A DNA stretch of 64,000 nucleotides from IMG/VR virus record IMGVR_UViG_3300046002_007411, positions 47,708 through 111,707 of that record, one strand, 5' to 3'. This stretch comes from a virus. Under the pieces are notes generated by a model. That model was not told where the DNA came from. It did not search any database and saw only the letters and a list, made by a program, of their open reading frames with translations. Positions within the stretch are counted from its first letter, which is position 1. Every line of letters begins with the position of its first letter. Both the position numbers and the translations under genes were made by a program. Below are positions 9,329 to 62,661 of the stretch, in pieces.

Positions 9329-9401
9329 TGTTTATTCTCCTTGTAAGTGCAAGTATATTTTTGCATGAGTATTTATTAGGTTTGCCCAAATCACGCGGGT
9401 T

Positions 9402-12208: not shown

Positions 12209-12212
12209 GGAT

Positions 12213-12461
12213 TTACTTCTCTTGATTCTTATATTCGCTAATTTTGCGGGTGAACTTTTTGTCATCATTTGTCAACAACGCACGCTGAAGACGGCGAATC
12301 AAGTCATCTGCTTGATCTTGACTGTAAGTTATACGGATTTGTTCACAAAGATTTGCCATGTTGGCAACTAGATGAATAACACGGTTTTCTATAACACTGT
12401 GTTTGTTGCGGCTGCCAATGTGCCGGTCAAGTTCTTCAAGAATGCTAGATTTAGACTTCAA
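12213..12461 (-). CDS. Small hypothetical protein
   Basis: 82-aa ORF; TTG start with GGGA RBS; TAAATA upstream. Confidence 0.7.
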   Translation of the reverse strand: MKSKSSILEELDRHIGSRNKHSVIENRVIHLVANMANLCEQIRITYSQDQADDLIRRLQRALLTNDDKKFTRKISEYKNQEK

Positions 12462-12518
12462 AATAGTTTCCCATAAGCAAAAACATTTGCTTTATTTATG
12501 GGAAACTGATGTAAAAAA

Positions 12519-35641: not shown

Positions 35642-37318
35642 ATGGATCTAAAAACTTTTTTGAACTTGAGTTCCAGTAAAAAATGGCTTGCTACAGTCAA
35701 AAAAAATCCCACGTGGAAACAGCAGCTATCAGCAATATATCCCAGCATAGTCAACTTGAAAGAACAGATTTACTTATATTTTAATGATTTAGATAAACCA
35801 CCAATCTGTTCTAATCCTTCTTGCAGCAAAACAGTTTCATGGCACGCAAATCACTACAGCAATACATGCAGTCATCAATGCGCTAATCAACTGTTAAAGC
35901 ATCTTGGAAAAGACCAAGAAATCAAAACAAAAATACGTAAGACAAATCAAGAAAAATATGGATGTGATAATCCACTGCAAAATGCTGCTGTTAAAAAACA
36001 ACGACTGGAAACAATGCATTCAAAATACCAAGGTGGCGCTAGCCCTTGCGCTAGGCAAGCTGCTAGCAAACGAATGCAAACATTAAATCAAATTTTACCA
36101 GAAATTTTGCAGGAAAAATATGGAGTAGCAAATGTGCAACAAATACCTGAGGTGCGTCGGCGTAGTCGAGAAACTCTGTTAGCCAATCACAACGTTATAA
36201 ATCCCAGTCAGATCCCTTATATCCAACAGCAACGCCAAGAAGACCTTTTAATAAACTGGCAATCTTTATGCAAAACCGTTGTTATAAATCAAATATTAGA
36301 TGATGTTACAACTGATTTGCCTTTTGCTAATAAAAGAATATCGTTTATATGCTGCTCTTGTCATTTAAATCAAACTTTACCTAGCGAAACATTTAAATGG
36401 AGGATTAGAGAAGCAAATACTCCTTGCATATCATGCAGCGGAATCAAGTCAGGAAGCTTGGAAGAACGTGATGTTGCTGAGTTTATCGAACAGCAGGGGT
36501 TTCAAATAGAGAGGAATACTCGACACATTATTGCTCCCAAAGAACTAGATATTTGGATTCCACAAACAAATATAGCCATAGAGTATTGTGGTTTATATTG
36601 GCATAGTGAGTCACAAATAGCTGACAAAAATTATCATAAAAACAAATGGCAACTTTGCCAAGATAAAAATATAAGGTTGATACAGGTGTTTCAGGATGAA
36701 TGGCTGCATAATGGTGATTTAGTTAAATCACGGTTATTGCACATACTGCAAAAGCAGCGGATAAAAATTCATGCCCGTAAAACAAAAGTAATAGAAATAT
36801 CTACCAAACAAGCACGAGCCTTTGCCTTGCAACATCATATACAAGGTCCAGGAACCGGGAACATTTGTTTGGGATTGCAGCACAATGATGATCTAGTTGC
36901 CGTAATGGATTTTGGCAAGTTAAGCATCAGCAAAGGACAAAAGCATGTCTTTAACACATATGAACTCACTAGGTTTTCCTCTAGCTATCCTGTTCCTGGA
37001 GGCGCTAGCAAGCTTTTTTCCTATTTCATAAACAAGTATCAACCTCAAGCTGTCTATAGTTACAGTGATTTGAGATGGAACACTGGACAACTATATGAGA
37101 CTTTGGGATTTCAGTTTGTCACTAACACTAATCCCAACTATTGGTATGTGCGAGGTGATAAAAGGTATCACAGATATAGTTTTAGAAAAGATCAGTTAGT
37201 TAAACTGGGGTATGATGCAACAAAAACTGAACGACAAATCATGGAAGAGTTGGGGTATGGAGTGATTTGGGATTGCGGTCATAGCAAATGGTTGTGGACA
37301 AAAAAGCCGGGCATTTAG
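35642..37318 (+). CDS. Hef-like homing endonuclease (Vsr/PD-(D/E)XK-type nuclease with C-terminal GNAT-like domain)
   Basis: Zn-binding N-term; KYG repeats; ELDIWIP..IAIEYCGLYWHS; FQDEW; GGASKL; SYSDLRW; IWDCG; antisense insertion between tube and sheath. Confidence 0.75.
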   Translation: MDLKTFLNLSSSKKWLATVKKNPTWKQQLSAIYPSIVNLKEQIYLYFNDLDKPPICSNPSCSKTVSWHANHYSNTCSHQCANQLLKHLGKDQEIKTKIRKTNQEKYGCDNPLQNAAVKKQRLETMHSKYQGGASPCARQAASKRMQTLNQILPEILQEKYGVANVQQIPEVRRRSRETLLANHNVINPSQIPYIQQQRQEDLLINWQSLCKTVVINQILDDVTTDLPFANKRISFICCSCHLNQTLPSETFKWRIREANTPCISCSGIKSGSLEERDVAEFIEQQGFQIERNTRHIIAPKELDIWIPQTNIAIEYCGLYWHSESQIADKNYHKNKWQLCQDKNIRLIQVFQDEWLHNGDLVKSRLLHILQKQRIKIHARKTKVIEISTKQARAFALQHHIQGPGTGNICLGLQHNDDLVAVMDFGKLSISKGQKHVFNTYELTRFSSSYPVPGGASKLFSYFINKYQPQAVYSYSDLRWNTGQLYETLGFQFVTNTNPNYWYVRGDKRYHRYSFRKDQLVKLGYDATKTERQIMEELGYGVIWDCGHSKWLWTKKPGI

Positions 37319-44027: not shown

Positions 44028-44639
44028 TTATGAAATTATTGACAAATAACGATTATAACGAGCTATTCTATCATCCAAACCATGTGTGCCACCATTGATG
44101 ATTTTGGTCAGTTTAACATGATCCTGTTGATCAGCTACTGGATTGCAGTTGTTTGCTGTCCAGAACCAACAAGCACTGGCTAGAGCACCATCGGGAGTAA
44201 CAAGGAAGTCGGGATCATCAAGCAGGCTTTCATCACTAAACACTGTTTGACTGCAACGAGTATAGTTGCTTTTGCCTGTTAGCTGAATTAATCCACGTCC
44301 GCGAAATCTAAAACCTTCGCCTGATTCTTCTGGACCATTGCCCATGCGTCCGCCATAAACTCTGTTCGCTATTTTTTGTGGTTGACGATGATACGGTTGT
44401 GCTTGTGCATCACTGCTAAAATATTTTGGAAATACCACACGCAGACGTTCACTGCTGTAGTTGAGGTTTTCTTCTAGTATTTTCCAATCGGCACTTTCAT
44501 GACCAGTTTGTGCTAGAAATGCTGCAATGCGATGTGGAGTGTTTATTTCCCAACGAGTTGCTGCTTGCACAAAAGGTTCATACCAAGTTTCCATTGAGGT
44601 TTTTGGGAAGCATTGTTGTAGTTGTTCTTGTGTAATCAT
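44028..44639 (-). CDS. Glycoside hydrolase family 19 endolysin
   Basis: AAFLAQTGHES, ENLNYS, FRGRGLIQLTG..NY and INGG.HGL motifs. Confidence 0.93.
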   Translation of the reverse strand: MITQEQLQQCFPKTSMETWYEPFVQAATRWEINTPHRIAAFLAQTGHESADWKILEENLNYSSERLRVVFPKYFSSDAQAQPYHRQPQKIANRVYGGRMGNGPEESGEGFRFRGRGLIQLTGKSNYTRCSQTVFSDESLLDDPDFLVTPDGALASACWFWTANNCNPVADQQDHVKLTKIINGGTHGLDDRIARYNRYLSIIS

Positions 44640-45783: not shown

Positions 45784-47148
45784 TTATGAAGATTTGAATG
45801 GCTTGTATTTGAAACTGATTTTACCTGATATTCTGCTGCTGAAATAGCTTTTGCCTGCATCAAGATATACTGTGCCATTATATTCTGGTGGATATATGGC
45901 AGAAAATCCAGTTACAGCAACATTGTTACCTTGAACACGAGCTTGTGTATAAACTTGCAAAATACTAGCTTGGTTTAAAAATGCCAAGCAACCTTCACCA
46001 AACGATGGAATCAGATTGATATGTTTACTTACATTTTTGGCTACATTGGCAATCAAAACATAACCTACTTTGAATCCTGGTACGTCTTGTTTACTGCCAT
46101 ATTCATTAAACAAAGCTTGTGCTGCTTTAGATAGCTTGCTGGACTCAGTTAGGTCTTTTTGCACCACTGAGCGAATTTCATTTGCTAGTTTGGTTGTTAT
46201 CAGCTCAAAACGCAAAGCCAACGCCAGGGGTCCTTCTTCTGCAGAGTTGTCATTAATAACTTGCATGATATCAATCATGTCAGCATGTTCTTCTAGCAAA
46301 TCATTGCGATTGTTTTGCTGTGCTTTCACAATAGCTGACCAAATATTTGCACTGCTTGCATTGGCCCCGCTGGCACCTTTGCTGCTGATTCCCAGCACAG
46401 CACCTTTTTTGCTCACAAAGTTGCTGTCTACCAAGTTGTTGTTTTTTCCTTGAGGCCATTGAACTTGACATGACTTCCAAGGTGCCCGTAGCACTTCACG
46501 TCTGGCCAAGTCAGCATCGCCTCCGATCATTCCCTGCCAAAGTGCAATAGGCTGCATGATTTCACCAAGGTAGTCTCTAATAGCTTCAAGATTTTCTGCT
46601 TGATTCTCAAATACCGGCATTTGACCTTGAGCTAGCTGACGTAGTCCTGCCATGATTTCTTCATTAGCACCGCGACTTTCAATCCAATCTAGTAGTTGTG
46701 CAGTGTTTGCAAATGCCTGTTCACTACCTATCAAATCTTGAGGTGTTAGTCCAGTTTTCATTTTCTTGGCACTGCGAGTTTGCAAATGCCAAGTGCCGGG
46801 AGTTTCATTATTACCCCAACTGCCTATTAGGTTTTTGGGAACGCTTTGATAGTGACGACCCCAAAGCATGGGTTCACCATTATCTAAAACCAGTTCGGCA
46901 ATAGCAAATGCTAGATAATTTTTGTTACGAGCATTAACCCATAGGATTTTTTGCCCAGTTTGTTGTTCTATTTGCAGCTTGGCTTGATCACATTGGTCAA
47001 TATCTGGAAAACTATCCTTATCAGGATACATGGTTATTTTGGTAAAGCGAGCTGATTGATTGTTATCATCAGTAAAAACATCGCCAGGCTTGCGACCAAA
47101 TAAACCTTTTGCTTCCCAAAGTGGTTGAATAAATTCCTGGTGTCGCAT
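45784..47148 (-). CDS. Putative virion-packaged restriction-endonuclease-fold protein
   Basis: N-terminus MRHQEFIQPLWE; DYLGEI...WP..NNNLVDS...GISSKG is a PD-(D/E)XK-like arrangement. Confidence 0.55.
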   Translation of the reverse strand: MRHQEFIQPLWEAKGLFGRKPGDVFTDDNNQSARFTKITMYPDKDSFPDIDQCDQAKLQIEQQTGQKILWVNARNKNYLAFAIAELVLDNGEPMLWGRHYQSVPKNLIGSWGNNETPGTWHLQTRSAKKMKTGLTPQDLIGSEQAFANTAQLLDWIESRGANEEIMAGLRQLAQGQMPVFENQAENLEAIRDYLGEIMQPIALWQGMIGGDADLARREVLRAPWKSCQVQWPQGKNNNLVDSNFVSKKGAVLGISSKGASGANASSANIWSAIVKAQQNNRNDLLEEHADMIDIMQVINDNSAEEGPLALALRFELITTKLANEIRSVVQKDLTESSKLSKAAQALFNEYGSKQDVPGFKVGYVLIANVAKNVSKHINLIPSFGEGCLAFLNQASILQVYTQARVQGNNVAVTGFSAIYPPEYNGTVYLDAGKSYFSSRISGKISFKYKPFKSS

Positions 47149-49929
47149 TTACTGACCTGCTTTCATTGTGACTTCTTGGAAGATAGAACGACTTTCATCA
47201 CGTTGTGGTTTGTGGCTAACACCCATGCCCTTGCGAGTTATGTCCATGAGATACTTGATCCAATCTTGCCCCAGAGCGGTTTCATCAAAACCTTGACTCC
47301 ACACATTATATTGTTGTTTGTCACTTGCTTGAGGATCTTTAAGGATGTTTCTCAGTTTGGTAAAACTCATGCCAGTTGTTCGCGGCGTGGGATTAAGAGA
47401 GACTTTGACATGTTCATAGCCAGGAAACTTATTCACAGATTTCATTATAGCTTGTGCCAATGGCATGTCTTTCTGATCTTCACCAACCATTATAACAACG
47501 TTATCATAGCGAGGAGCTTGTCCCCGACGTGGATTGACCAACTCATGCTTGATCTTTTGCATAAGTGATCCTCCTTGTTGAACAGCACTGATATTCGAGG
47601 CATATTCAGGATCTAGCTTGTGCCAAGTTTGTGTTTTAACAGAGGGTGGTATGGGATCATCAACTCCCACAGCATTGCCTATGAACAAATAAGGATCGGC
47701 TTGGAGTTTTTGTGCTTGTTCTTTTGTAAGCCTCCACAGCTCTTGATGACCTTTGTGTCCCACAAAACTTCCAATAGCTACTACAGCAGTTTTTGCCTTG
47801 CCTTTCACAGCAGGTGGGGCCTTGGCAGCCATGGCTTGTTTCATTTGAGGTGATGTTACTTTAAACACTTGTCCACTGGGCATGTTGACAATAATGCCTT
47901 CCATGGTATTGCCAAGAACATTTTTACCTCTTAGTTTGGGACTGGTCAAAATTGTTTGACTGAGCTTTTCTCTAGCAGCATCAAGTTTGTCTTTGTTTGC
48001 AACACGATTTTTGGGATCAAGGTCCGCAACCGGCTCAACTATTTTCTCGACATCCAATCCAGAATGTTCCAGTTGGTTGTTGATTATTTTTACATCACTT
48101 GTGCTGGCGTCCGTCAACTGCTTTTTGATTTCTGCGGATTGCTGTTCAGGTAGTTCAGTGCCTGTGCTGAACTTTTTAAAAGCAAATGGCACCAAGGTCA
48201 TAACCTTACCAAGTTCCTTGGGATCGTAACTGATATTAACAAACTTTAAACCATCCTCAGTTTGCTGGGCCATGGGCCTATATAACATTTCCGCTTGAAC
48301 CAATGTGTTAACTGGAACTTTCTTGATAAAGTCACTGCCAGTAATGATTTTCAAAACTTGATCGTAGTTGCGTGCTCGAGCTTGTTGTTCTTGATTTTGA
48401 CCTTGTTCTTTTGCATATTTAGAGAAAAATCCTTGGTCCTCGGCATATATTGGTCGATCCACCCTGCTAGTCATAAAAAATGGTTGGCCTTTTTGATCTC
48501 TACCAAAACGTATGCCAGCCCCGTCAACTTTCAAGTTAATAGGCACATCATCCAAGTTGCCACCAAGTTGAGCTATTTCCTGACAAAGTTTAATAAAATC
48601 TGCGTCCTTCATCTCCATGCTGCTGGCACGGCCGTCAGGCAGTCTACTGTAAATGTGTTGAACACCTTTTCTAGCAAAACTAGGTGTATCTTGAGCTTCT
48701 TGTATTATGCCTTTTTCTTTTTGTCTGCTACGAAACTTGCTTTCGTAATCTATTGCCATGTTTACAGCTTGCTGACGCAGTTGAGTTGAATTTGGCACTT
48801 TAAGTGGTTTGTGGTCTTTGGTTCCCAAAAGCATGATGTCAATAGCAGCGAACTTGGTATCGCGGTCACGTTGCGGATCGTCTTTTGTGATCATTTGTGC
48901 CCCAGCACCAAACAAAATATCATAAAACGCTTCGACTACAGCACGGTTTTGTTCGGGTTTTAGATACTTGTTCATAAGTTGAATTGTGCCAACAAAACTA
49001 CCTTGCAGTTTTCTATCAGCTTCCGTGCGTTTACGTCCAAACATCAGTTCAAACTGCTGATCAAGGTTTTGCACATAATGTCTATCTGCTGTTTCAATAT
49101 ATTGCATTATGGGAATATTCTTTTTGGTGGCAGGCTCACCTGTTTGAGGATCAAGGTAAGGACGGTATTTCAAACTAAGGCCACCACCTTGAGCACTGGT
49201 CACAGCAAAACTATAGTTGCTGTCTTGAACAGGCTCATCACTTATTTTAACGCCACGTTTTTGAACTTTTGCAACATACTTTTTGGTTTGATGTGCTTGC
49301 ACTAGGGCGCGATTTATATACTTGTGGAATACACCTTTAATGCCTACTTCCATGTCGTCATAATGGCTGCTGTGACTGTAAGCAAACCATTCAGTGGGCT
49401 TTTTAGTTTTGGTATCATAAGGACCCAGCTCGTAGTCCACTTGCACACGCACAACAGGATCATCTAGCAACCAAATACTGCTTAAGGAACTGTTGAATCC
49501 CAAAAGCACACCGTTTCCAACTTTTTGCCCTATGATACTTTCCAACCAAGTGGCTAATTCCTCACCAAGATTTTGATCAACTTGGGTATCAATATCACCA
49601 ACTTTGGTTTTTTTCAGTTTGTTTAGGAAATCTTCAGTGTTAATTTTTTTGATATTGAAAAAATGCACACTGCTTCCACTAAACATGTCTCCACTTGTCA
49701 GCAAACTGGGTGCCCAAATATACTTGCCTGTGGCTTCGCGAAAGCTTTTATTTTGAGCAGCAAACAACTTTCTCAGTTGTTTGACCATGAAATCTCTATT
49801 ATGCAGTTTGAGATCAATTTCTTGCGCGGCTTGATCTTGCGCACCTTTCCAACCAGGACTTTTGCTGCTTACATTGCCGCCTTCCATCAAATAAGGCAGT
49901 GGACTATATAAAATTTCAGATATGAGCAT
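47149..49929 (-). CDS. Multidomain protein: Pol-beta-like nucleotidyltransferase + ATP-dependent ligase-like domain + HIGH-type (cytidylyltransferase-like) domain
   Basis: FSGS...GDIDTQV...VQVD; LKVDG...AE...EGIIV...FKV; GSFVGHKGH...VGEDQ...MSFTKLR. Confidence 0.75.
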   Translation of the reverse strand: MLISEILYSPLPYLMEGGNVSSKSPGWKGAQDQAAQEIDLKLHNRDFMVKQLRKLFAAQNKSFREATGKYIWAPSLLTSGDMFSGSSVHFFNIKKINTEDFLNKLKKTKVGDIDTQVDQNLGEELATWLESIIGQKVGNGVLLGFNSSLSSIWLLDDPVVRVQVDYELGPYDTKTKKPTEWFAYSHSSHYDDMEVGIKGVFHKYINRALVQAHQTKKYVAKVQKRGVKISDEPVQDSNYSFAVTSAQGGGLSLKYRPYLDPQTGEPATKKNIPIMQYIETADRHYVQNLDQQFELMFGRKRTEADRKLQGSFVGTIQLMNKYLKPEQNRAVVEAFYDILFGAGAQMITKDDPQRDRDTKFAAIDIMLLGTKDHKPLKVPNSTQLRQQAVNMAIDYESKFRSRQKEKGIIQEAQDTPSFARKGVQHIYSRLPDGRASSMEMKDADFIKLCQEIAQLGGNLDDVPINLKVDGAGIRFGRDQKGQPFFMTSRVDRPIYAEDQGFFSKYAKEQGQNQEQQARARNYDQVLKIITGSDFIKKVPVNTLVQAEMLYRPMAQQTEDGLKFVNISYDPKELGKVMTLVPFAFKKFSTGTELPEQQSAEIKKQLTDASTSDVKIINNQLEHSGLDVEKIVEPVADLDPKNRVANKDKLDAAREKLSQTILTSPKLRGKNVLGNTMEGIIVNMPSGQVFKVTSPQMKQAMAAKAPPAVKGKAKTAVVAIGSFVGHKGHQELWRLTKEQAQKLQADPYLFIGNAVGVDDPIPPSVKTQTWHKLDPEYASNISAVQQGGSLMQKIKHELVNPRRGQAPRYDNVVIMVGEDQKDMPLAQAIMKSVNKFPGYEHVKVSLNPTPRTTGMSFTKLRNILKDPQASDKQQYNVWSQGFDETALGQDWIKYLMDITRKGMGVSHKPQRDESRSIFQEVTMKAGQ

Positions 49930-49981
49930 AAGGGCCTCGTAAAAATACCCAGTATTTAGTATTTTACGAGGCTATTTGTGG

Positions 49982-51019
49982 CTAAAAGAATAAACTTGAT
50001 GTGACAGTTTGAGGACGCGGAAACTCTAGGAAAAACTTTTCTGTAACCAGCACTTGATTGTCCAGTAGTTGATAAACTCTATTACTTTTGGACGGTTGAT
50101 ACCGTTGACCATCTTGAACATAGGGCAATAAGTCAGGTACTTTGGCCGCTGGTGCTGGAGCCCATGGAACATTATCCTGCCATGTTATTGTTCCCGACAT
50201 ACGGTCTAACTGTTGTTGCCATATTTGATTCAAGTTTATGTTTCGGAAGTTGTGGTTGTGTGCACGCCAGGTGGGCACAGCCAGCAGGTCGTTTACTCGT
50301 GACAAAATTACATCACTAGCCAAGTTACTGATTTGCACATGTTGCTTGTGTGATATCACATGTTGGCTGGCACTGATACATGTGTAACCATGTTCTGTCA
50401 ACCACTGTATAGCTTCATGACTGCGTGCAAGTTCATCAGGCGTTTTGTGATTGCACTCAAAAAATATCCAAGGTTGATCACGCTCAAGAAGCTGCGTGGC
50501 CCCTTGCAATACTGCCAGTTCATGACCTTCCACGTCAATTTTCATAAGTTTAACAGGATCCAGTGTTAAACTGTCAAGGTTCACAATAGGCACTTGGCGA
50601 TTACCTTGTCCCTGTTGGACAACATGGCTGGTGCCTGTTTGTGTTTTATTCCATGCAAACTCTACAACACCTGAAGTTTCACCTACAGCAGTGTTATGCA
50701 ACTTCCATGCAACCTCAGTTGCATGATATGTCCTAGTAATAGATTCACAGTTTTCTTGTATGGGTTCAAACATTTCTGTGGAAGTAACAAACCCTTGAGA
50801 TAAAAACTCCCAACTGGCTACACCATAGTTTGCACCTACATCTAGCAAATGACCTGGACCGTGGAGGCCCAGTTCTTGCCATACTGGCCACCATTTGCGA
50901 AACAACCAGTTGTCATTTTGCAAACGTAGCTTGCTGCTCCAAAAGTCTTGTTTGGTCATATGAAGCTCAAGTCCATTAAATGGCAAAACTTCAGTTTTCA
51001 AATCAGCTAGGCGTTGCAT
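49982..51019 (-). CDS. FkbM-family SAM-dependent methyltransferase
   Basis: LDVGANYG, FEP, AVG and MKIDVEGHELAVLQG motifs. Confidence 0.9.
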   Translation of the reverse strand: MQRLADLKTEVLPFNGLELHMTKQDFWSSKLRLQNDNWLFRKWWPVWQELGLHGPGHLLDVGANYGVASWEFLSQGFVTSTEMFEPIQENCESITRTYHATEVAWKLHNTAVGETSGVVEFAWNKTQTGTSHVVQQGQGNRQVPIVNLDSLTLDPVKLMKIDVEGHELAVLQGATQLLERDQPWIFFECNHKTPDELARSHEAIQWLTEHGYTCISASQHVISHKQHVQISNLASDVILSRVNDLLAVPTWRAHNHNFRNINLNQIWQQQLDRMSGTITWQDNVPWAPAPAAKVPDLLPYVQDGQRYQPSKSNRVYQLLDNQVLVTEKFFLEFPRPQTVTSSLFF

Positions 51020-51120: not shown

Positions 51121-52689
51121 ATGGCATCAAATACACATGACCCTTTTGTTTCACAAATTCAACACTTGTTAAGCTCGCATGCGCCTGACGGCATAGCTAC
51201 ACGAGTAAAAAGCAACAAGGACCTAGCACTCGCTGTAACAGCATGGACCGCAAGCGCATCATGTTCCAACTGGAGTGAAAAAATCTATTGTTATGTGAAT
51301 GGTTTGGAACACCCACCTCTGTGTGCATGTGGTCAAGCTTTAACATTTGTCAGCATAAAAACAGGCTATCGCGAGTTCTGTTCACGATCATGTGATCATG
51401 CTAAATCAGCAGCAACTCAACGCAGAATCGCCAAAATGAAAAGTCAAGGCGGGGTAGGACTAGCCAATCCCAATACCAAAGCCAAAGCTAGAAAAACATT
51501 ACAACAAATATATGGTGATGATATCATCAATCCCAGCCAAATATTAGAAAATCGAGCAAAGTTAAAAATCAACAATCCAATGCACTGCCAAGTTACCAAA
51601 GATAAAATTAAGCAAACTACATTACTGAAATATGGCGTTGATAACGTTGCCAAGCTACATTATTCACCTAAAACTATTGAAATCTTAAATGATAAAGAAT
51701 TGTTAAAAGAACTATTTCTAAGTATGCCTACTTCTGATATTTCATCTAAACTAGGTGTAAGTGATGGTGTTATATTTAAACAACTATATAGATTTGAACT
51801 TAGAAAGCCTCATCAGTCATCTCCAGAGTTACAACTAAGAGAATACCTAACATCATTGGGCTGTGATGATTTTAAAAAAGATAGGAAAATACTAAAAGGC
51901 AAGGAACTGGATTTCTATAGTGCTTCATTAAATGTTGCAATAGAATATTGCGGATTATATTATCATTCAGAATCTGTCTACCTAAATAGGAAATACCATA
52001 GGGAAAAGTATTTACAATGTAAAGAAGCTGGTATAAAATTAGTTACTATATTTGAAAATGAATGGATACACCGACCAAATATAGTTCTGTCGCGCATTAA
52101 ACATCTCGTTAAAAGATCTGAAACTGGTATCGGTGCTAGGAAGTTAGCAATAAAAGAAATTGATACAAACATCGCTAAGCAGTTTCTAGAGGTGTTTCAC
52201 ATTGACGGATATGCAAATACATCAACAAAATTTGGTGCTTTTTATCGTGATGAACTAGTCGCTGTTATGACATTTGGTAAAAATAATCGAGTTAATTCTG
52301 CAAAGCTTTTACAAGAGTGGGAAATGGTTAGATTCGCAACTAACGGTAAAAACTATCCAGGTGTTGCTGGTAAACTATTTTCAACATTTATCAAAAGTTA
52401 TAATCCCACTAGTATTCTAAGTTACAGTAATCTACGATACGGAGAAGGCGATTATTTAAAATATCTAGGTTTTATTCGAAATAAAGATACCAGCGTGGGA
52501 TATTGGTACTTTAAAAATAATGAATATAAATTATATCATCGTTCGAACTTTACCAAGGACAATATCTTAAGGAAGTTTCCTATGATTGATTTTACTGCTG
52601 TTACAGACGAATATTCCATGGCCAAGCTTGCAGGATTAGATCGGATATGGGATTGTGGCAATGCAGTATGGGCATGGAACAAAAAATAA
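51121..52689 (+). CDS. Hef-like homing endonuclease (paralog of 35642..37318)
   Basis: ELDFY..VAIEYCGLYYHS; FENEW; ARK; GVAGKL; SYSNLRY; IWDCG; visibly AT-rich; antisense. Confidence 0.75.
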   Translation: MASNTHDPFVSQIQHLLSSHAPDGIATRVKSNKDLALAVTAWTASASCSNWSEKIYCYVNGLEHPPLCACGQALTFVSIKTGYREFCSRSCDHAKSAATQRRIAKMKSQGGVGLANPNTKAKARKTLQQIYGDDIINPSQILENRAKLKINNPMHCQVTKDKIKQTTLLKYGVDNVAKLHYSPKTIEILNDKELLKELFLSMPTSDISSKLGVSDGVIFKQLYRFELRKPHQSSPELQLREYLTSLGCDDFKKDRKILKGKELDFYSASLNVAIEYCGLYYHSESVYLNRKYHREKYLQCKEAGIKLVTIFENEWIHRPNIVLSRIKHLVKRSETGIGARKLAIKEIDTNIAKQFLEVFHIDGYANTSTKFGAFYRDELVAVMTFGKNNRVNSAKLLQEWEMVRFATNGKNYPGVAGKLFSTFIKSYNPTSILSYSNLRYGEGDYLKYLGFIRNKDTSVGYWYFKNNEYKLYHRSNFTKDNILRKFPMIDFTAVTDEYSMAKLAGLDRIWDCGNAVWAWNKK

Positions 52690-52778: not shown

Positions 52779-53978
52779 TTAAATAAACTTCAAGTTAGCT
52801 GTGTTAATGGAAATACCAGCCAAGTAGTCAGCAGCATTGCCAAGGCTTGATGCTGTGTTGCTGAGTTCCAAATAGCCGTAACGTGACATAAAGCTCACAA
52901 CTGGTTCAAAAGTTGTGGGGTCAATGATCACACCACTGCTTGTTAGAGGAACGTATGGGCAATAATATGCCGCCGCGTCGATTTCGCCAGGGCCTTTGTA
53001 ACCAACCAATACGTTTGTGTCGTCAGCAGCATATTGGTCAACATACACGCGCATGGTGTTGTTCAAAGTGCCAACGAACTTGGTGTTGGTTGGTGCTTCA
53101 AATGTACCTTCGGTTGTGCGAGCAAAAGCTGAAGTTGTTGCGCTTTGCAGGATTGTCAAAGCTGTGGGGCTTACCACAACCCAGTTACCTGCACCACGAC
53201 GTGTGCGGGCAGCAATCAAGTTTGCACCACGGTTGATCAACACTGCTAGAGCAGCATGTTCGTCACCAACGTATGTTGCAGTACCGCTTACAGCACCTTG
53301 GTCATAAGTTAGTGTTGTGCCAGCCAATGTACGCAAGCTGGTCAAGATTTCTTGGTCAATTTCAGCTGTGATTTCTTGAGCCAAAGCAGCCATGATTTCT
53401 GCTTCGATGTCAATGCCTTGTTGGGCTTGTGCATCTTGAGCAGCTTCAAAGGTCCAGCGAGCTGACAACTTGCGTGTCTTGGCTTCCACTGTTTCCTTCA
53501 AGATTTGGATGTTCAGTCTCTTGCCAGCTGTACCTTCTAGCACGCTGGTTGGTGCAGCGCGAGGAGTTGTGCTGTTGCCATTACCGCTATAGAAGCGTGC
53601 AATGTCGAATGGGCTGAGAGCTTCAGTTCCAGCTGCTACTGCATTTGGTGTACCAAATGTATCAGCATAACGCACACGCAGGGTGTGGATTTGGCCCACA
53701 GGACCAGTCATGGGCTGTACGCCAATGATTTCGTTAGCAATAACAGTTGGCATTACACGACGGATAACAGGCAAAATAACCTTGTTCAGGGTTGCGATGT
53801 TACCGGCGCTTGTGCTACCGGGACTGGCAGTCTCAAACAAGATGCCACTCATTTTGTTTAGTTCACGCTTGGTGTTGTCAAGGACTACGTCCATGACTTT
53901 TTTACGGTTACCACTGAGACCTTCGCATAGGGCCTGTTTTGTAGCTGCCCAGTGTGTCTCAAAGAGATTTTTACTCAT
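52779..53978 (-). CDS. gp23: Major capsid protein (gp23-like)
   Basis: LPVIRRVMP..IA.EIIGVQPMTGPVG; VEAKTRKLSARWT.E.AQD; YCPYVPL; SRYG. Confidence 0.97.
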   Translation of the reverse strand: MSKNLFETHWAATKQALCEGLSGNRKKVMDVVLDNTKRELNKMSGILFETASPGSTSAGNIATLNKVILPVIRRVMPTVIANEIIGVQPMTGPVGQIHTLRVRYADTFGTPNAVAAGTEALSPFDIARFYSGNGNSTTPRAAPTSVLEGTAGKRLNIQILKETVEAKTRKLSARWTFEAAQDAQAQQGIDIEAEIMAALAQEITAEIDQEILTSLRTLAGTTLTYDQGAVSGTATYVGDEHAALAVLINRGANLIAARTRRGAGNWVVVSPTALTILQSATTSAFARTTEGTFEAPTNTKFVGTLNNTMRVYVDQYAADDTNVLVGYKGPGEIDAAAYYCPYVPLTSSGVIIDPTTFEPVVSFMSRYGYLELSNTASSLGNAADYLAGISINTANLKFI

Positions 53979-55217: not shown

Positions 55218-55862
55218 TTAAAGTTTCAGATCATCAATCCAGCTTAGCAAGGCGGACTTCAAGTGCTTTTGAGCCTTGGGGTCGTGCCTAACGCTTTGTG
55301 CTAGATCCAGAGTCCGATATCCATGTCTGCGATTCATTAGTTGTTCATACACTGGAGTGGGATATGCATTAGGTGCACTGGGGTTGGCAACAATGTCCAC
55401 TGTAAGCATATCAAAGTCGCTTACTCGACCTTCGTCATCAACGTTACCACTACCACGGCTGCTAACGCCAAGTTTGCAACCGCATTCCAGCAAAGTTTTT
55501 ATAATATTACCCACTGGTGTAGGTAGTATTTGCAACTTGCCAATCCCATTATCTCCGTCCATCCACATGTCTGTGATTTTGTGGCTGACACGATCTAAAT
55601 GAATCTGTAGTTCTTGAGGATGATCGCATTCGCCTAAAACACTGTTGTTTTTGCGAATTTGTTCTTTTATTTGCTCTACTGCTCGACGTATTTCTGGGGC
55701 AGGATAAACTCTGCCATTTTGGTTTCTGCGGGAACCTTCAATGAAGATCCCTTTCATATACATGTGTTTAGTTTGACCATTGCCATCTGTTTCAGTTAAA
55801 ACTTCAGCAGCGGCTCGTTCATATGTAAGATGTTCAATAAGCAGAGCGCTTGTCATTTTCAT
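55218..55862 (-). CDS. gp21: Prohead core protease (gp21-like)
   Basis: NQNGRVY, GECDHP, VSH, LGVSSRGSG and DIVANPSAPNA motifs. Confidence 0.95.
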   Translation of the reverse strand: MKMTSALLIEHLTYERAAAEVLTETDGNGQTKHMYMKGIFIEGSRRNQNGRVYPAPEIRRAVEQIKEQIRKNNSVLGECDHPQELQIHLDRVSHKITDMWMDGDNGIGKLQILPTPVGNIIKTLLECGCKLGVSSRGSGNVDDEGRVSDFDMLTVDIVANPSAPNAYPTPVYEQLMNRRHGYRTLDLAQSVRHDPKAQKHLKSALLSWIDDLKL

Positions 55863-56015: not shown

Positions 56016-56981
56016 TTATTTTGCAGGAGCGCGAGTTAGTGGGCTCTTTTTGTTGCCTTCAGTGCTTTTGTTAAGGATAGCACCGCTTGCGCCTTCTTTG
56101 CTTACATGTCCCATGTGATCAGTAGCCTTTTTGCGACGGTTGTCACCTTGGGTATGCTTTAGTGTTGCACTGCTGGGAGCAGATTCACGATTGTAACCGC
56201 TGTGATGACCACCTTTTGTGGGATCAACAGGCTTTGCACCCATGCGTTCTTTTTGACTGGCTGGAACTGGGCTTTTGGCACGAGCACCTACGTCGCTAGC
56301 AAACTTACCGCTACCAACTTCACCAGGGGTTTTTTGGCTTTGCATGGGATTTTGATCCACTACGTCAAGGCTCACGGCCTCACTTAGTGAATCCCAATCT
56401 TCCTCAACTTCCTCAACCTCTTCTTCTTCACCTTCTTCTTCACCTTCAGGTTGATCCATAATGTCAACTTCTGTTTCGTCAGCTTCTAGATCTTCATCAC
56501 CTTCATGGTCTTCTTCGCCGCCTTGGTCTTTAATACGTTCAAACTCAGCTTCTAGTTCTTCTAGAGCTTTGGTCAAAGCATCAATACCCTTTTCCATGCC
56601 GCTTAGTTCACCGCCATGGTCAGCTGCGCCTTCCATGTCTGTCATGTCCTCCATGTCATCCATGTCATCTTCAGTTTCGTCTGAAACTTCAGTTTCCATG
56701 TCCATCATGTCTTCATCTTCTTCGCTCATGACTTCTTCAAACTCAATTTCAGCATCGTCATCAGAAATGTCGTCAGACATTTCTTTAACGTCATGCATGA
56801 AGTCTTCGCCTTGGTCGCCACTGCCACCAATTTCCATCATGTCGTCTTCTTCATGTGTCATCAGTTCTTCATGAATAGCACGAGCTTTTTCAATAAAGAT
56901 TTGATGCAATAGTGCTTTAGCTTGACCCTCTTCATTATTTAGAAGGTGTTCTAAAACCTTCTCTAACTTTGTTTTACTCAT
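56016..56981 (-). CDS. Highly acidic prohead core protein (gp67/68-like position)
   Basis: Very D/E-rich; between portal and protease; AAGGAG RBS and TAAATA. Confidence 0.65.
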   Translation of the reverse strand: MSKTKLEKVLEHLLNNEEGQAKALLHQIFIEKARAIHEELMTHEEDDMMEIGGSGDQGEDFMHDVKEMSDDISDDDAEIEFEEVMSEEDEDMMDMETEVSDETEDDMDDMEDMTDMEGAADHGGELSGMEKGIDALTKALEELEAEFERIKDQGGEEDHEGDEDLEADETEVDIMDQPEGEEEGEEEEVEEVEEDWDSLSEAVSLDVVDQNPMQSQKTPGEVGSGKFASDVGARAKSPVPASQKERMGAKPVDPTKGGHHSGYNRESAPSSATLKHTQGDNRRKKATDHMGHVSKEGASGAILNKSTEGNKKSPLTRAPAK

Positions 56982-58367: not shown

Positions 58368-60116
58368 TTATACTCCCGGGGCTTCTGGTGCAGCGGCTGG
58401 TGCAGCTTCTGGAGCAGCAGGTGCAGCAACTTCAGGAGGAGCTTCTCCACCTGGTTCGCCAGGCAAACCAGGCTCTTCAAATCCTGACACATCACGAATA
58501 CCCACACTAGCTAAATCCACATTATTTTCATCACTTGGTGCTTTACCAGTCTTTGCTTTTACTTTATCAGCGTTTTCTTCCTGGAATCTGCGTTCATTTT
58601 CAATAACATCTTCCTCTGTCCAACCAAGATAACGCATTAGTGCATATCGCTTGCTGATGTAACGATTTGCATCACTGCCCATGATGCTGGTAAACAAGTT
58701 GATTTGTTCGCTTTCTTTTTGTATGCGACGATAATCACTAAAGCTTTGAGGTTCCCAAAACTGCAAATCAAACAAGCTGCTGGAGATTTCTATGCCACGA
58801 TGCTTGAGAAATAGTTTAAACTCTCTATCTAAAACTGGAGCAACTAGATTTTGCAAACGCTGACAGTATTTGGTAAAACGATATTCTTGAACAAAGGCTG
58901 ATCCTATTTTGCCATCACTGAATACAGTGGTGCCATCCTCGGGCCCTGTGGGCAAATAACTGCTGGGAATACCCAAGCCGCGAATCATTTTGTTGTTGAA
59001 GTATTTCAAGTCATCAATCTGTCCGAGATTTTCACCACCAGGCAAAGTTTCAATACGGGATCCTTTGCCTTCAGAGTTTTGTGCAAGGAAAAAGTCCTCA
59101 TTTATGGCAATAGGGCTATAAGCCGCATCCAAAATACTTTGTCCTCCACCTGTTCTGTTGGGGATTCGGCGTTGATAGATTTCGTTTTTAATACGCTCGA
59201 CATATTGCATGGCACGTGGACCACTGAGATTGCCCACATCAATATAAAAAATTCTACGTTCTGGTGCCCGCACTATGCGATAAATGATAATGCTATCTTC
59301 CAGCAGGTCTTTTTGCTTGTAAACCTTGTAAATGCTTTCCAATATGCTGGTGCCAAAGGGCCATTGACTGTCCATGCCCTCACTTAAACTCAAATGCACA
59401 ACATGGGTGCCATCAATAGCATAGTTGTTGTCGGGTAAGTTGAAACGTGAGTTTCTACTTCCCGGACTACTAGCAACACCGTAGTTCACAGTGCCTGCAC
59501 CAGCAGCAGGATTACTGCTACGTGGATACCCTCCAGGAAAGCTATACTGGTCATGAACCAGCATGCTGGTGGCAACCATGCTTTGCAGATTTAAATCAAT
59601 ATCACGAATAACATATTGCTCAATGTCTTTGCCACGATTTTCATTTACTATGATCTTTTCAACTTTTGTGGGATCAACCCAAATAAGCTCAAAAGTTTCA
59701 GGATCACGTATGTAAATCTGATCGCCATATTTGATGACATTTCTAAATGCCCGCCAAAGGCGCTGCTGCCATTTGTTCAAGCTGCACCACTGCCGTAAAG
59801 TGTCCTTCAACAACGTGATTTCTGTATCTGTTAGCTCGTCATGATACACTATGTCAAAAGGATCAGTGTCATTTTCAAAATTCTGTGTGCTGAAATCGCT
59901 TATAACATCAAGAGCTTTGCTGATTTCACTATCTAAATCCATTTGTTCATATTGAATATAACGCTCAACTCTATTAGGAGCCCCGCTATAAACCTCGGGC
60001 AAAAAACTACTGTATTTGCCGCTGGTTCCTCCTTGCCCACTGGTAGAGTTACCCACTTCACGAGTTGTTCTTGCAGGGCTAGGCACGGCGCTAAAGTATT
60101 TTTTCCAAGAAGACAT
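58368..60116 (-). CDS. gp20: Portal protein (gp20-like)
   Basis: LLEDSIIIYRIVRAPERRIFYIDVGN; EDFFL; ETLPGGENLGQIDD. Confidence 0.96.
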   Translation of the reverse strand: MSSWKKYFSAVPSPARTTREVGNSTSGQGGTSGKYSSFLPEVYSGAPNRVERYIQYEQMDLDSEISKALDVISDFSTQNFENDTDPFDIVYHDELTDTEITLLKDTLRQWCSLNKWQQRLWRAFRNVIKYGDQIYIRDPETFELIWVDPTKVEKIIVNENRGKDIEQYVIRDIDLNLQSMVATSMLVHDQYSFPGGYPRSSNPAAGAGTVNYGVASSPGSRNSRFNLPDNNYAIDGTHVVHLSLSEGMDSQWPFGTSILESIYKVYKQKDLLEDSIIIYRIVRAPERRIFYIDVGNLSGPRAMQYVERIKNEIYQRRIPNRTGGGQSILDAAYSPIAINEDFFLAQNSEGKGSRIETLPGGENLGQIDDLKYFNNKMIRGLGIPSSYLPTGPEDGTTVFSDGKIGSAFVQEYRFTKYCQRLQNLVAPVLDREFKLFLKHRGIEISSSLFDLQFWEPQSFSDYRRIQKESEQINLFTSIMGSDANRYISKRYALMRYLGWTEEDVIENERRFQEENADKVKAKTGKAPSDENNVDLASVGIRDVSGFEEPGLPGEPGGEAPPEVAAPAAPEAAPAAAPEAPGV

Positions 60117-60171: not shown

Positions 60172-62661
60172 TTAAGATGCAGATAATCCTGCTCCTTGCA
60201 CTGGTCGATCAGTTACTAAAGTTGCCAAGCTTGTATTCATGGAACTCAATAGGTCTTTCATGTTTTCATTAAGTTCACGTATGTTTTTCCAAATATTCAA
60301 AGTATCAGCTTGCCAATCAGTATTCATACCTTGATACTCAGGTGCAGATGCAGGAGTTTCTGCTCGACCACTCACTGCACCTAATACTCTAGAAAGATTA
60401 TCAAAGCCTCCAGCACCAGGAGTCAAGCTAATAGCACTTATAACTTCACGGTAACCTGCGCTGAAATCTTTTAGGGCTTGACCAGTTTCACTGTATTGCA
60501 AGTTTAAACCTTGACGATCTTCTAACATTTTGTCAATCTGTTCAAGTAACGACATTTGCCCTGCAGCTTGCTCGGGACTGCGTTGTGCGTCTGCACCACC
60601 GCCGCCAAATAAAGTTCCGCTGTGTTGATATAGGCCCATGCCTGCGCCAGCTAGACCGCCTAATGCTCCGCCTACTAATGCCCCACCTGGACCTAAAAAT
60701 GCACCCAACATGGCGCCAGTGCCAGCTAATCCTGCAGCTTGTCCAAGAATATCAAGTCCCGCACCAGTTTTACCATAGCCTGCTCCAGTAGCAGCAGTAC
60801 CTAAACCTCCCAAGGCTGCTCCTGCTACTAATCCGCCAATACTTCCTCGACCTAACATACTTCCCAACCTGCCAAATCTACCGCCACCTGCTTGGCCTGG
60901 TCGGCCAGGTGCGCCGCCCCCTAAACCACCGCCACCTAAACCACCTGCGCTTACTTCGCGGGTATATATGGGATTTTGAGGTGTAGAACCTGGAATACCA
61001 GGGCCTATACCGCTAGCGCCTATACCTGGCGCACCTTTTGGTCCACCAAACATTGATACAATGCTTCTAAAACCTTTCACTGCTAAAACTGAAGCACCTA
61101 TAGCTGCTCCAAAAGCAATAACAGACCCTAATATTCCACCTTGTCCGCCTAGTCCAACAGCACTTGTTATAGCTTTATCAATGTCATTAAATTTTTCTGA
61201 TAACCATGTAATCCCGTCTGCTAGATAACCCAAAGGTGTAATTAAATAGTTTGCAGCACTTGCAAAGCTTCTAAATATTTCATTATTAAGTTTGTTGAAT
61301 GCCTCCGTAAGCTTGTTTAATACTTCTTTACGTTTTTTATCCTCTTCAGCTTCTTTTGCACGCTCAGCTTTAAGTTCATTAAGAGTCATACCACGACGTT
61401 TAGCTTCGGCTTCCATCTGCTCTAGCTTGTCTTTTTCTGCTTGTTCAACATTTTTAGCATTTTTGATTAAATCACCAAGAGTTCCTGCTAGTTCAGGCAT
61501 GGCAGCTAGCAGCTGGCGGCGCAGTGACTCAGGTGCAGCGATTAGTGTTTTTGCAAATTGTTTTTGTGCATCTTCATACTCTTCCCCACCTTTAACACTT
61601 GCTTCTGCTAGATTGGCAAAACTACCTCCAAGCCCTGGCACTGTGCTAATCAAGTGCTGCATGCTTTCATCAAGCAGGCCAAAGGTGTTTGAACCGGCAA
61701 AATATTTTTGTATGTTATCTGCTAGTAGCTTACCACCTTGTTGACCAAACTTAGCCAACTGAGCAGTAGCAGCAATTAAGTTTTCTCCTGCTTTTGCACT
61801 CATTGTGCTCAATAACAAATAGCTGCTACCAGTTTTTGTTATACTACTAACAAAGTCTATTAACGCTTTTCTACTCAGTCCTGTGGCTTCACTTACTTTA
61901 CCAAACTGGTTAATAAGCCCTTGGCTGCTGGCTACAAGTTGTTGGTTGTTTAGGCGGCCGGCTACACCAGCTTGCTGATAGATGTCCACAGTTTGCAAGA
62001 ACATTTCTGCGCCATCCTGCAAGCTTAGGAGATATTCACCACCATATCGGCTGGTATCTTGAAATGTTTTAATTAACTTGGGAACATCACGCCCCCCTAA
62101 CTGTGCAAATACAGTGCTGTTTTTTGTAGCTAATGCACCAAACTCCTGTACGCTTAACCTAGCTGTGTTACTGCTTGTGATCAGTCCATTGATACCGCCT
62201 TGAAGTCTAACACCAGTTTCATATAAATCACTAAAGATTTTATCAGCTTCTATGAGCTTTTCCAAGCTTTTACTTACTAAGAGTGCAACTGTTGCAAATC
62301 TCTGCAAACCACTTATTGCCAGCTTGTTTGCTTTACCTTGTTCCTCAAAGTCTTGGGCTAGTAATTTTGTACTCTGACTTATATTAGTAAAGAGCCCTTG
62401 TCCCCCTTGTATGCCTTCCGTTAAAGCTGATTTCCAAACTTGTCCAGCTTGTTGAAGATAATACCGGGTTTTTTCTGAGTTATCTTTTAACTGTTGACTG
62501 TTCTCTTCTAAAGCTTGTCTGGCGACCTCCCCTTCCTTGCTTGGGGTTTTAGGATCTAATGCTGTTAGGAGTTTTTTAAGAGTGGTTTCTGTTGCCCAGC
62601 CAACATTTCCTTGACTAGCCATCGCAACAAATAATGGATTGTTAGCATTTGTTCCAGACAT
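60172..62661 (-). CDS. Tape-measure-like protein
   Basis: 829 aa; helical/coiled-coil with Gly/Ala-rich hydrophobic segments; next to the gp26-like gene. Confidence 0.65.
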   Translation of the reverse strand: MSGTNANNPLFVAMASQGNVGWATETTLKKLLTALDPKTPSKEGEVARQALEENSQQLKDNSEKTRYYLQQAGQVWKSALTEGIQGGQGLFTNISQSTKLLAQDFEEQGKANKLAISGLQRFATVALLVSKSLEKLIEADKIFSDLYETGVRLQGGINGLITSSNTARLSVQEFGALATKNSTVFAQLGGRDVPKLIKTFQDTSRYGGEYLLSLQDGAEMFLQTVDIYQQAGVAGRLNNQQLVASSQGLINQFGKVSEATGLSRKALIDFVSSITKTGSSYLLLSTMSAKAGENLIAATAQLAKFGQQGGKLLADNIQKYFAGSNTFGLLDESMQHLISTVPGLGGSFANLAEASVKGGEEYEDAQKQFAKTLIAAPESLRRQLLAAMPELAGTLGDLIKNAKNVEQAEKDKLEQMEAEAKRRGMTLNELKAERAKEAEEDKKRKEVLNKLTEAFNKLNNEIFRSFASAANYLITPLGYLADGITWLSEKFNDIDKAITSAVGLGGQGGILGSVIAFGAAIGASVLAVKGFRSIVSMFGGPKGAPGIGASGIGPGIPGSTPQNPIYTREVSAGGLGGGGLGGGAPGRPGQAGGGRFGRLGSMLGRGSIGGLVAGAALGGLGTAATGAGYGKTGAGLDILGQAAGLAGTGAMLGAFLGPGGALVGGALGGLAGAGMGLYQHSGTLFGGGGADAQRSPEQAAGQMSLLEQIDKMLEDRQGLNLQYSETGQALKDFSAGYREVISAISLTPGAGGFDNLSRVLGAVSGRAETPASAPEYQGMNTDWQADTLNIWKNIRELNENMKDLLSSMNTSLATLVTDRPVQGAGLSAS

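Follow-up and report, generated by a model that had tools for sequence, protein, structure and literature searches.

The window analyzed here is a stretch of 64,000 nucleotides of viral DNA (positions 47,708 to 111,707 of the IMG/VR virus record IMGVR_UViG_3300046002_007411), and coordinates below refer to this window unless stated otherwise. Its source contig is a 111.7-kb piece with an estimated completeness of ca. 27%, which implies a jumbo phage of several hundred kilobases. The source is a large uncultured marine T4-related phage, and one relative of the smaller protein discussed below comes from a Tara sample. Within its block of head and tail genes, the window encodes two abutting minus-strand open reading frames (ORFs), i.e., a polyprotein of 926 amino acids (aa; P0001) with three enzyme-like modules (A, B, and C) and a protein of 454 aa (P0002). 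The polyprotein belongs to a large, widespread family that appears to load three nucleotide-transfer enzymes into the phage head, where the head protease would release them. The features of the two genes are as follows, with arrows marking predicted protease cuts:

47149-49929, minus strand: 926-aa ORF (P0001), from the ORF call
49882-49929, minus strand: leader of the 926-aa protein, residues 1-16 (MLISEILYSPLPYLME), a predicted capsid-targeting propeptide cut after E16; disordered in the AlphaFold2 (AF2) model
48697-49881, minus strand: module A, residues 17-411, a probable Pol-beta-superfamily nucleotidyltransferase (44.8 kDa, isoelectric point [pI] 9.2; matches phrog_19290)
48694-48705, minus strand: predicted protease site I409-Q410-E411↓A412 in the disordered A-B linker
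47815-48696, minus strand: module B, residues 412-705, an RNA-ligase-type covalent nucleotidyltransferase domain (motif I K467-V-D-G, motif III E547, motif IV E677-G678, motif V K690)
47152-47814, minus strand: module C, residues 706-926, a HIGH-signature (HxGH) nucleotidyltransferase, NMNAT/PPAT-like and fused to B
45784-47148, minus strand: 454-aa ORF (P0002), from the ORF call
47113-47148, minus strand: leader of the 454-aa protein, residues 1-12 (MRHQEFIQPLWE↓AKG), a T4-type capsid-targeting sequence; residues 1-11 disordered in AF2
45784-47112, minus strand: mature 454-aa protein, residues 13-454 (48.8 kDa), with a small beta-barrel (13-124) and a C-terminal alpha/beta domain (167-454)

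Both ORFs had been described in an earlier reading of this DNA (hereafter the original prediction) and are confirmed in the sequence, with the TAA stop of the 926-aa ORF directly abutting the ATG of the 454-aa ORF. An exhaustive HMMER search divided the 926-aa protein into three units (residues ~10-375, ~435-705, and ~705-910), each of which also exists as a stand-alone protein, and gathered 827 representative clusters for the polyprotein family (E<=1e-3). The module borders given above agree with those originally proposed, and the motifs listed at the time are all in place: GS85-86, GDID111-114, and VQVD162-165 in module A; KVDG467-470, AE546-547, EGIIV677-681, and FKV689-691 in module B; GHKGH724-728, VGED815-818, and GMSFTKLR853-860 in module C. 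The AF2 model of the polyprotein, built on an 80-sequence alignment, has a mean predicted local distance difference test (pLDDT) score of 91.8 and is disordered only at residues 1-12, at residues 406-414 (pLDDT <50), and at the last three residues. Pfam searches with the two proteins returned nothing but a sub-threshold FAD_syn match, and megablast of the region encoding them against cultured phages found no match. Conservation of the catalytic residues among homologues, on which the original prediction had hinged, was found in all three modules, where the key residues are invariant; with active sites kept intact in so diverged a family, it is likely that catalysis has been retained.

Three nucleotidyl-transfer folds had been proposed for the polyprotein. 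The ligase and HIGH folds are borne out by the AF2 model together with Foldseek and VIA searches, and matches to modules B and C filled the fold searches made with the whole model. Module B has the adenylyltransferase-domain fold and lacks an OB domain; its K467-V-D-G, E547, E677-G678, and K690 are invariant in 18 sequences, with the motifs in order. RNA ligases stand ca. 2 Z units above DNA ligases among the fold matches of module B, where the DNA ligases of T4 and African swine fever virus (ASFV) also match, and a sequence and profile search of the PDB gave no meaningful match for this module. Module C has the Rossmann-like fold of the HIGH family and carries the motifs G720..H725-K-G-H728 and G853-M-S-F-T-K-L-R860, in which homologues keep the G, H, GH, G, T, and R. 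NMNAT, PPAT, FAD synthetase, and cytidylyltransferases all fall within about 2 Z units for module C, i.e., fold scores do not separate the substrates, and its profile touched RibF alone in the PDB. Homologues of module C annotated as “cytitidyltransferase” are present in 551 phage records, mostly of T4-like cyanophages, and 85 of these also cover the adjoining ligase-like part; in the cyanophage literature, the cytidylyltransferase is a gene without an assigned role. The B-C unit is found as a stand-alone protein, too.

Module A is probably a Pol-beta-superfamily nucleotidyltransferase, judging from its sequence. Across 39 sequences, G17, G18, N19, G85, S86, G111, D112, D114, Q163, D165, E167, K198, G199, and K203 are invariant. 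The superfamily signature hG[GS]..[DE]h[DE]h..carboxylate is present as G85-S86, D112-I-D114 on a strand (112-118), and D165 on another strand (161-169), with a GS-to-DxD spacing of 25 residues that is longer than usual. The order of AF2 elements fits GS-helix-strand(DxD)-helix-strands(D), and in the nearest named ESM Atlas cluster (score 0.94) 33% of the members carry PF01909. The third of the proposed folds is read from its motifs, its secondary-structure order, and this ESM Atlas lead. A profile search for distant annotated relatives of module A returned only unannotated family members, and hmmscan of the 39 family members found no consistent Pfam family and no match to PF01909, PF14792, or PF10127. 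Stand-alone homologues are encoded by Campylobacter, Vibrio, and Xanthomonas phages, and a start with MGGN is seen in many stand-alone module-A proteins. In Campylobacter phage CP220 (L003:5990-8158), the stand-alone module A adjoins a radical-SAM gene, and in Xanthomonas phage BUDD (L002:61-2709) it lies a few kilobases from QueE-like and tRNA-guanine-transglycosylase-like genes; a link of stand-alone module A to 7-deazaguanine DNA modification is possible.

The prohead protease gp21 of T4 cuts after (L/I)xE, and the T4 internal proteins IPII and IPIII start with MKTYQEFIAE↓A (read from the T4 record). This capsid-targeting tag loads diverse cargo in T4 (PMC3012670). Among 48 full-length homologues of the polyprotein, 45 begin with a leader of 10-70 residues that ends in [LIV]xE directly before the invariant GGN, typically of the kind MLLREFF.., MKLLELF.., or MRSFEFI... 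These leaders resemble the T4 tag as had been proposed, and the MRxxEFIxE of the 454-aa family all but matches that of IPII and IPIII. A second site, [LIV]xE↓(A/D/E), lies at the same place in the disordered A-B linker of almost all 48 homologues, and both LME16↓G17 and IQE411↓A412 of the window protein are therefore real and conserved sites. The C-terminal FQE site of the original prediction does not hold, with F instead of L/I at position P3 and no conservation. No [LIV]xE site is present in the Ala/Lys-rich linker between B and C of the 48 homologues, and a scheme with three cleavage products was rejected because these two modules would stay fused. The two predicted products are both basic (A, 44.8 kDa with pI 9.2; B-C, ~57 kDa with pI 9.3).

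Relatives of two of the modules have been detected in virions. Gene 1-56 of Campylobacter phage vB_CcoM-IBB_35 encodes a module-A homologue of 44.4 kDa (tblastn E 2e-27), the product of which was found by tandem mass spectrometry in purified virions with 17% coverage (PMC3322345 supplement), and its near-identical counterpart in CP220 starts with MKLSELMFILE↓GGN. The cyanophage “cytidylyltransferase” S-SZBM1_140, which was identified in CsCl-purified virions (PMC9146016), starts with MRFRQFIIE↓A and matches the module-C profile (E 4e-21). Members of the A and C families are thus real virion components in other phages. Together with the conserved leader and sites and with the S77-type prohead protease and Gp23 capsid genes in the window, the former 5 kb from the polyprotein gene, these two proteomes agree with the original prediction that the polyprotein is packaged and cleaved, and we consider its packaging and protease processing very likely. 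Next to the cytidylyltransferase of S-SZBM1, S-SZBM1_139 (L041:2989-4362) encodes a highly basic, Ala/Gly/Ser/Lys-rich protein of 457 aa that was also detected in virions (PMC9146016) and may be a DNA-associated internal head protein.

The 454-aa protein, too, begins with a T4-like tag and would be another cargo of the head. Its family shares the consensus MRxxEFIxE↓(A/S)(K/R)GLFGR, with LWE12↓A as the site in the window protein. The invariant E196, D241, and S255-x-K257 stand at the E, D, and (D/E)xK positions of the PD-(D/E)XK fold; MspI and HinP1I are the top, though weak, structural matches of its model, and its ESM leads are restriction-enzyme clusters. Foldseek of the model against the PDB gave nothing at E<=0.001, a sequence and profile search of the PDB gave no meaningful match, and Pfam found no consistent family among all 29 members. 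What stands of the PD-(D/E)XK-like gene originally proposed is hence the placement of these residues together with a weak restriction-endonuclease signal, and support for the nuclease fold as such is weak. The protein may have a degenerate restriction-endonuclease fold and serve to bind or trim nucleic acid. Using tblastn, neither it nor one cyanophage-context homologue matched any of 50,697 records of cultured phages, so the family is so far metagenomic only.

A coupling of the two genes had also been proposed, and they are adjacent only in the lineage of the window: none of ~70 A-B-C loci from other lineages has a P0002 homologue within 6 kb. We therefore rejected the idea of an obligatory pair, also given that P0002 keeps the company of other genes in the relative L007, whose capsid protein is 91% identical. 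There, two small proteins of 359 and 346 aa (positions 5922-7001 and 8427-9467 of L007) flank the P0002 homologue and stand in for the polyprotein; their leaders are MKISELLTESKPLLE↓GGN and MKISEILAPALQE↓GGW, both carry GS..GDxD motifs, and phmmer with these small GGN proteins found nothing in the PDB. It appears that a single head-cargo locus has had its cargo exchanged. P0002 homologues recur beside nucleotidyltransferases: in L011-L018, a 240-aa LLE↓GGN protein overlaps the start of the homologue, and P0185 seems to fuse a GGN-type domain to one, with an hhalign E of 0.05 between the module-A profile and the N-terminal domain of P0185 that is suggestive only. Just upstream of B and C in cyanophage S-SZBM1, S-SZBM1_142 aligns to the P0002 profile with moderate support (hhalign E 1.6e-4 to 2.9e-4, probability 40-50%) and shares the K..LxPQD, IxxDxxEI, LVD, and FSVKK blocks with P0002, of which it is a probable distant relative. 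Comparison of the P0002 profile by hhalign with gene X of BUDD and with S-PM2 p143 was not significant.

The three modules of the polyprotein are widely linked to each other. A fused A-B-C ORF of 949-1919 aa is present at ~62 of the ~70 IMG/VR loci found with the module-A profile. Longer homologues add tails with lysozyme, LysM, PG_binding_1, Hydrolase_2 (cell-wall hydrolase), Sigma70_r4, or DUF6321 domains, and one has an N-terminal HExxH segment; many carry a C-terminal lysozyme in place of a separate gene as in the window. In BUDD, module A (MGGN start), an uncharacterized 333-aa protein, B (KLDG), and C (GRFQPVHNGH) are encoded by four consecutive genes. S-PM2 p141/p142 and S-SZBM1_141 (Pfam DUF6267) with S-SZBM1_140 correspond to B plus C. 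In S-PM2 (L038:6026-7805; NC_006820 103025-104804), p141 has the KWDG and the p142 “cytidyltransferase” has the EG and K motifs together with GRFNPPTTGH, while a 591-aa S-PM2 protein in BFVD matches over both modules; the split into p141 and p142 is likely a frameshift or an annotation split of the older record. Fusion, conserved gene order, and co-occurrence all indicate that A, B, and C work together.

The setting of the two genes is a virion gene block, as had been claimed. Reading along the minus strand in the direction of transcription, portal, prohead protease, scaffold-like, Gp23 capsid, and FkbM methyltransferase genes precede the 926-aa and 454-aa ORFs, which are followed by genes for a virion structural protein, the GH19 lysozyme, gp15-like and adaptor proteins, and the tail sheath. 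The following features belong to this block:

60172-62661 and 56016-56981, minus strand: two head-block ORFs of 829 aa and 321 aa, without a match in PHROGs or Pfam
58368-60116, minus strand: portal
55218-55862, minus strand: prohead protease of the T4 gp21 family (Pfam Peptidase_S77 E 1.2e-25; phrog_207 E 2e-59)
52779-53978, minus strand: major capsid protein, Gp23 family
51121-52689 and 35642-37318, plus strand: paralogous homing/HNH endonuclease genes of 522 and 558 aa (PHROGs matches; weaker match to a Mom-like DNA-modification family)
49982-51019, minus strand: FkbM-family methyltransferase (PF05050 E 5e-18), directly upstream of the polyprotein
49934-49972, minus strand: imperfect inverted repeat (GCCTCGTAAAATAC / GTATTTTTACGAGGC) just upstream of the 926-aa ORF, read from the sequence
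44028-44639, minus strand: GH19 chitinase-type lysozyme of 203 aa (PF00182; phrog_181), between the structural protein and the gp15-like gene

In the hairpin upstream of the polyprotein, a candidate late promoter or gate of ribosome binding, the loop holds TAAATA (49953-49958) and the 3' arm holds the GAGG ribosome site of the polyprotein (49935-49938). The putative TAAATA promoter of the original prediction is accordingly present as a hexamer in a hairpin loop, but the full TATAAATA was not found at this hairpin (49934-49972). The FkbM methyltransferase gene is also found in the near-identical contig L050; its product was considered as co-packaged cargo, which is unlikely without a targeting leader. 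The two plus-strand HNH/Mom-like genes break the minus-strand structural operon, one in the gap between the capsid and methyltransferase genes and the other in the gap between the sheath and tube genes, and in L007 such a gene also directly follows the capsid gene.

Based on these results, we propose that the polyprotein is a packaged and cleaved “add and seal” kit for broken nucleic-acid ends, an explanation to which we assign a probability of roughly 50% as a whole. The 16-residue leader would take the polyprotein into the prohead core, where the gp21-type prohead protease would cut after E16 and E411. The products would be a 45-kDa Pol-beta-type nucleotidyltransferase starting with the invariant GGN and a 57-kDa fusion of the RNA-ligase-type adenylyltransferase (K467) with the HIGH/NMNAT-type nucleotidyltransferase. 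Like the T4 internal proteins, both basic products would stay in the DNA-filled head and leave it with the DNA at infection; the lysozyme, LysM, and peptidoglycan-binding tails fused to many homologues fit ejected proteins. In the new host, the Pol-beta-type enzyme would rebuild or lengthen 3' ends, and the ligase module would seal 5'-P/3'-OH breaks. The HIGH module is the hardest to place in this scheme; it may supply or regenerate an adenylylated cofactor that the ligase uses, or its target may be some other small phosphate compound that it adenylylates. The folds of B and C, the conservation of residues and sites, and the presence of A and C homologues in virions are established, whereas cleavage, ejection, and all activities of the polyprotein are inferred.

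The most likely substrate is broken host or phage RNA, e.g., tRNA cut by defense nucleases. RNA-end repair leads because nick-sealing RNA ligases are closest to module B and because RlaP provides a precedent (see below), and delivery of such a kit before phage gene expression is our leading reading, if at somewhat less than even odds. RNA repair, the first role named in the original prediction, is thus plausible but indistinguishable from DNA repair, whereas the restoration of NAD by the NMNAT-type domain alone, another role named at the time, is unlikely. A more speculative variant, to which we give only a small chance, would have the HIGH module make an adenylyl donor such as NAD, or regenerate it from released NMN, beside the ligase site; B-C could then adenylylate, cap, or seal the ends of incoming phage DNA or of first transcripts, even in a host that depletes its ATP or NAD in defense, and module A would tail the opposite 3' end.

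Several observations weigh against an RNA-repair kit delivered from the head. PF01909 (NTP_transf_2), PF14792 (DNA_pol_B_palm), and PF10127 (RlaP) matched neither module A nor anything else in the whole 111.7-kb genome piece at E<=10, and searches of the PDB by sequence and profile gave no meaningful match for module A. Sealing by ATP-type RNA ligases requires 5'-P/3'-OH ends, a kinase or phosphoesterase that could heal cyclic-phosphate ends is missing, and to our knowledge the HIGH/NMNAT-type domain has no role in RNA repair. Three of the 48 full-length homologues start with MGGN and lack a leader, as do BUDD and many stand-alone A proteins, which implies that the enzymes also work in phages that perhaps do not package them through a tag. 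In S-SZBM1 virions, C and the adjoining Ala/Lys-rich protein were seen but B and the P0002-like protein were not (PMC9146016). Finally, in the distant jumbo relatives L080, L125, L053, L103, and L121 (~5000-12500), A-B-C lies beside apparent Def (deformylase), ClpA-like, DnaJ, and Dps genes, as assigned by visual inspection of the encoded N-termini, and not beside head genes. Several small ORFs around A-B-C in these same relatives start with the tag (MRALEFITE.., MRAKEFIAE.., MLLNEFF.., MKIKELLE..), which suggests from their N-termini a locus of many capsid-targeted proteins.

The strongest competitor, itself rather unlikely, keeps the packaging but takes DNA as the substrate, so that the head would deliver a base-excision or nick-repair kit for the incoming phage genome, with a polymerase-X-like module A closing short gaps or tailing ends, a ligase in module B sealing nicks, and the 454-aa protein of endonuclease fold processing damaged ends. 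It draws on the matches of module B to DNA ligases including those of T4 and ASFV, on DNA_pol_B_palm and thumb clusters among the ESM leads of module A, and on the basic predicted products. In addition, the small GGN proteins beside P0002 homologues carry GS-x8-SGDLDL, which we take to resemble the motif of Pol beta, and a natural PolX-ligase fusion performs base-excision repair (BER) in a giant virus (PgVPolX, PMC5537341). Against this stand the lead of ca. 2 Z units that RNA ligases hold over DNA ligases, the missing OB domain of module B, and the silence of PF14792 across the genome at E 10; moreover, the nuclease fold of P0002 is weak and its gene is usually not next to A-B-C, and no apurinic/apyrimidinic endonuclease or lyase was identified. 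If instead the chemistry concerned small molecules, the product of the HIGH module would be a dinucleotide cofactor (NAD, FAD, dephospho-CoA, or an NDP-sugar), and the other two modules would make or modify signals or cofactors derived from nucleotides, so as to counter NAD-depleting or nucleotide-signaling defenses from the moment of DNA entry. Phage NAD reconstitution is an established counter-defense (Osterman 2024, cited in PMC12801897), one cyanophage homologue is annotated as nicotinate-nucleotide adenylyltransferase, and Pol-beta nucleotidyltransferases include cyclic-nucleotide synthases. However, ADP-ribose and nicotinamide are not turned back into NAD by NMNAT alone, and PPAT, FAD synthetase, and cytidylyltransferases come close to NMNAT in score, so that other substrates are conceivable. 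Small-molecule chemistry also hardly accounts for the constant association with an RNA-ligase-type domain whose motifs I-V are intact, and we regard this version as doubtful.

The two remaining alternatives concern delivery. After packaging and cleavage, the proteins might do their work in the head or already in the producer cell, be it as passengers of the scaffold core, as DNA-condensing internal proteins derived from enzymes, or as enzymes that finish the packaged DNA. Basic products would sit within the packed DNA, a scaffold-like gene and the protease are close by, and presence in virions does not demonstrate ejection or activity in a new host; yet catalytic residues that are invariant over hundreds of diverged homologues argue for maintained catalysis, other phages have leaderless versions, and exit from the head is what one would expect of proteins with fused lysozyme and peptidoglycan-binding tails, so we give this idea little credence. 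It is most improbable that the proteins are not packaged at all, i.e., that they are ordinary cytoplasmic late enzymes encoded in a structural block with a merely coincidental similarity to the tag. The leader pattern occurs in 2 of the 120 ORFs of the 111.7-kb genome piece compared with 1% at internal Met positions, a count that is not significant alone, and elsewhere among phages the neighbors are replication or chaperone genes. This reading is at odds with the location of the first site exactly before the invariant GGN (45 of 48 homologues) and of the second precisely within the disordered linker, with homologues in purified virions of two unrelated phages, and with clusters of neighboring small ORFs that share the leader in distant relatives.

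Head-packaged proteins are the only phage tools that act before phage gene expression, and those of T4 are small inhibitors or one ADP-ribosyltransferase. The family described here spans marine jumbo phages, cyanophages, and Campylobacter, Vibrio, and Xanthomonas phages. If its members indeed mend ends on arrival, they would represent a new layer of counter-defense against anticodon nucleases, nickases, and nucleotide-depleting systems, and a function could be given to the near-universal cyanophage “cytitidyltransferase” and DUF6267 genes. Should B-C cap ends or recycle its cofactor instead, it would be a new virion-delivered system of genome or RNA end protection. Cultured carriers of the modules exist with IBB_35/CP220, S-SZBM1, S-PM2, and BUDD, and the leader and cleavage rule could be used to load foreign enzymes into the capsids of non-T4 phages.

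Compared with known systems, the polyprotein is closest in its loading to IPI, IPII, IPIII, and Alt of T4, which likewise carry a short tag ending in (L/I)xE in front of diverse cargo (...YLME↓GGN in P0001). The T4 internal proteins are small and not enzymes, and Alt comprises just one ADP-ribosyltransferase, whereas the 926-aa polyprotein comprises three enzymes and an internal second site; unlike for the T4 internal proteins, packaging has been shown for A and C homologues only. Among its modules, B shares ~11-12% identity with the ATP-dependent RNA ligases Rnl2/Rnl5/REL1 (T4 Rnl2 2hvq, Naegleria NgrRnl 5cot, T. brucei REL1 1xdn) and matches no Pfam ligase model. It has neither the C-terminal domain of Rnl2 nor the N-terminal domain of NgrRnl, and a helical insert sets it apart, as does its fusion to a HIGH nucleotidyltransferase. 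Module C has the Rossmann-like fold, the HxGH, and a C-terminal SxTxxR-type motif in common with archaeal NMNAT (1f9a), NadM (2qjt), PPAT, and the cyanophage “cytitidyltransferase”, whose gene is likewise fused to, or located after, a KxDG module. Unlike NMNATs, it is set in a processed polyprotein with module A. For the 454-aa protein, MspI and HinP1I share the helix(E)-strand-strand(D)-strand(xK) order (E196, D241, S255-x-K257), and these two enzymes replace the second acidic residue (N/Q-x-K).

A Pol-beta-type nucleotidyltransferase linked to an RNA-ligase-type enzyme is also known from RlaP (PF10127), which acts jointly with RNA ligases in repairing RNA and has been proposed to add missing 3' nucleotides before the break is sealed (Burroughs and Aravind, as cited in PMC7824862; bioRxiv 10.64898/2025.12.29.696909). 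Unlike RlaP, module A does not belong to PF10127, is fused to and not merely a neighbor of its ligase, has an invariant N-terminal GGN, and is targeted to the virion. Viral enzymes of Pol-beta type that are joined with a ligase and repair gaps and nicks exist as PgVPolX of Phaeocystis globosa virus, in which one polypeptide contains both (PMC5537341), and the PolX/ligase set of ASFV. However, PgVPolX contains an NAD-dependent DNA-ligase domain, acts in BER, and has no HIGH module, tag, or protease sites. Polyvalent proteins of phages and conjugative elements are long multi-enzyme polypeptides delivered with the DNA that often contain lysozyme or peptidase domains and for which proteolytic release of the parts has been proposed (Iyer et al. 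2017, PMC5512222). The polyprotein shares with them the three enzyme modules in one polypeptide encoded in a head/tail gene block. The searched passages of this survey do not describe an A-B-C architecture, and the Pol-beta nucleotidyltransferases listed there are minimal, ArdC-linked, and firmicute (PMC5512222). Release would here depend on the head protease acting at [LIV]xE, as opposed to the in-built peptidase of polyvalent proteins. The loading principle is thus that of the T4 internal proteins and Alt and the multi-enzyme design is that of polyvalent proteins.

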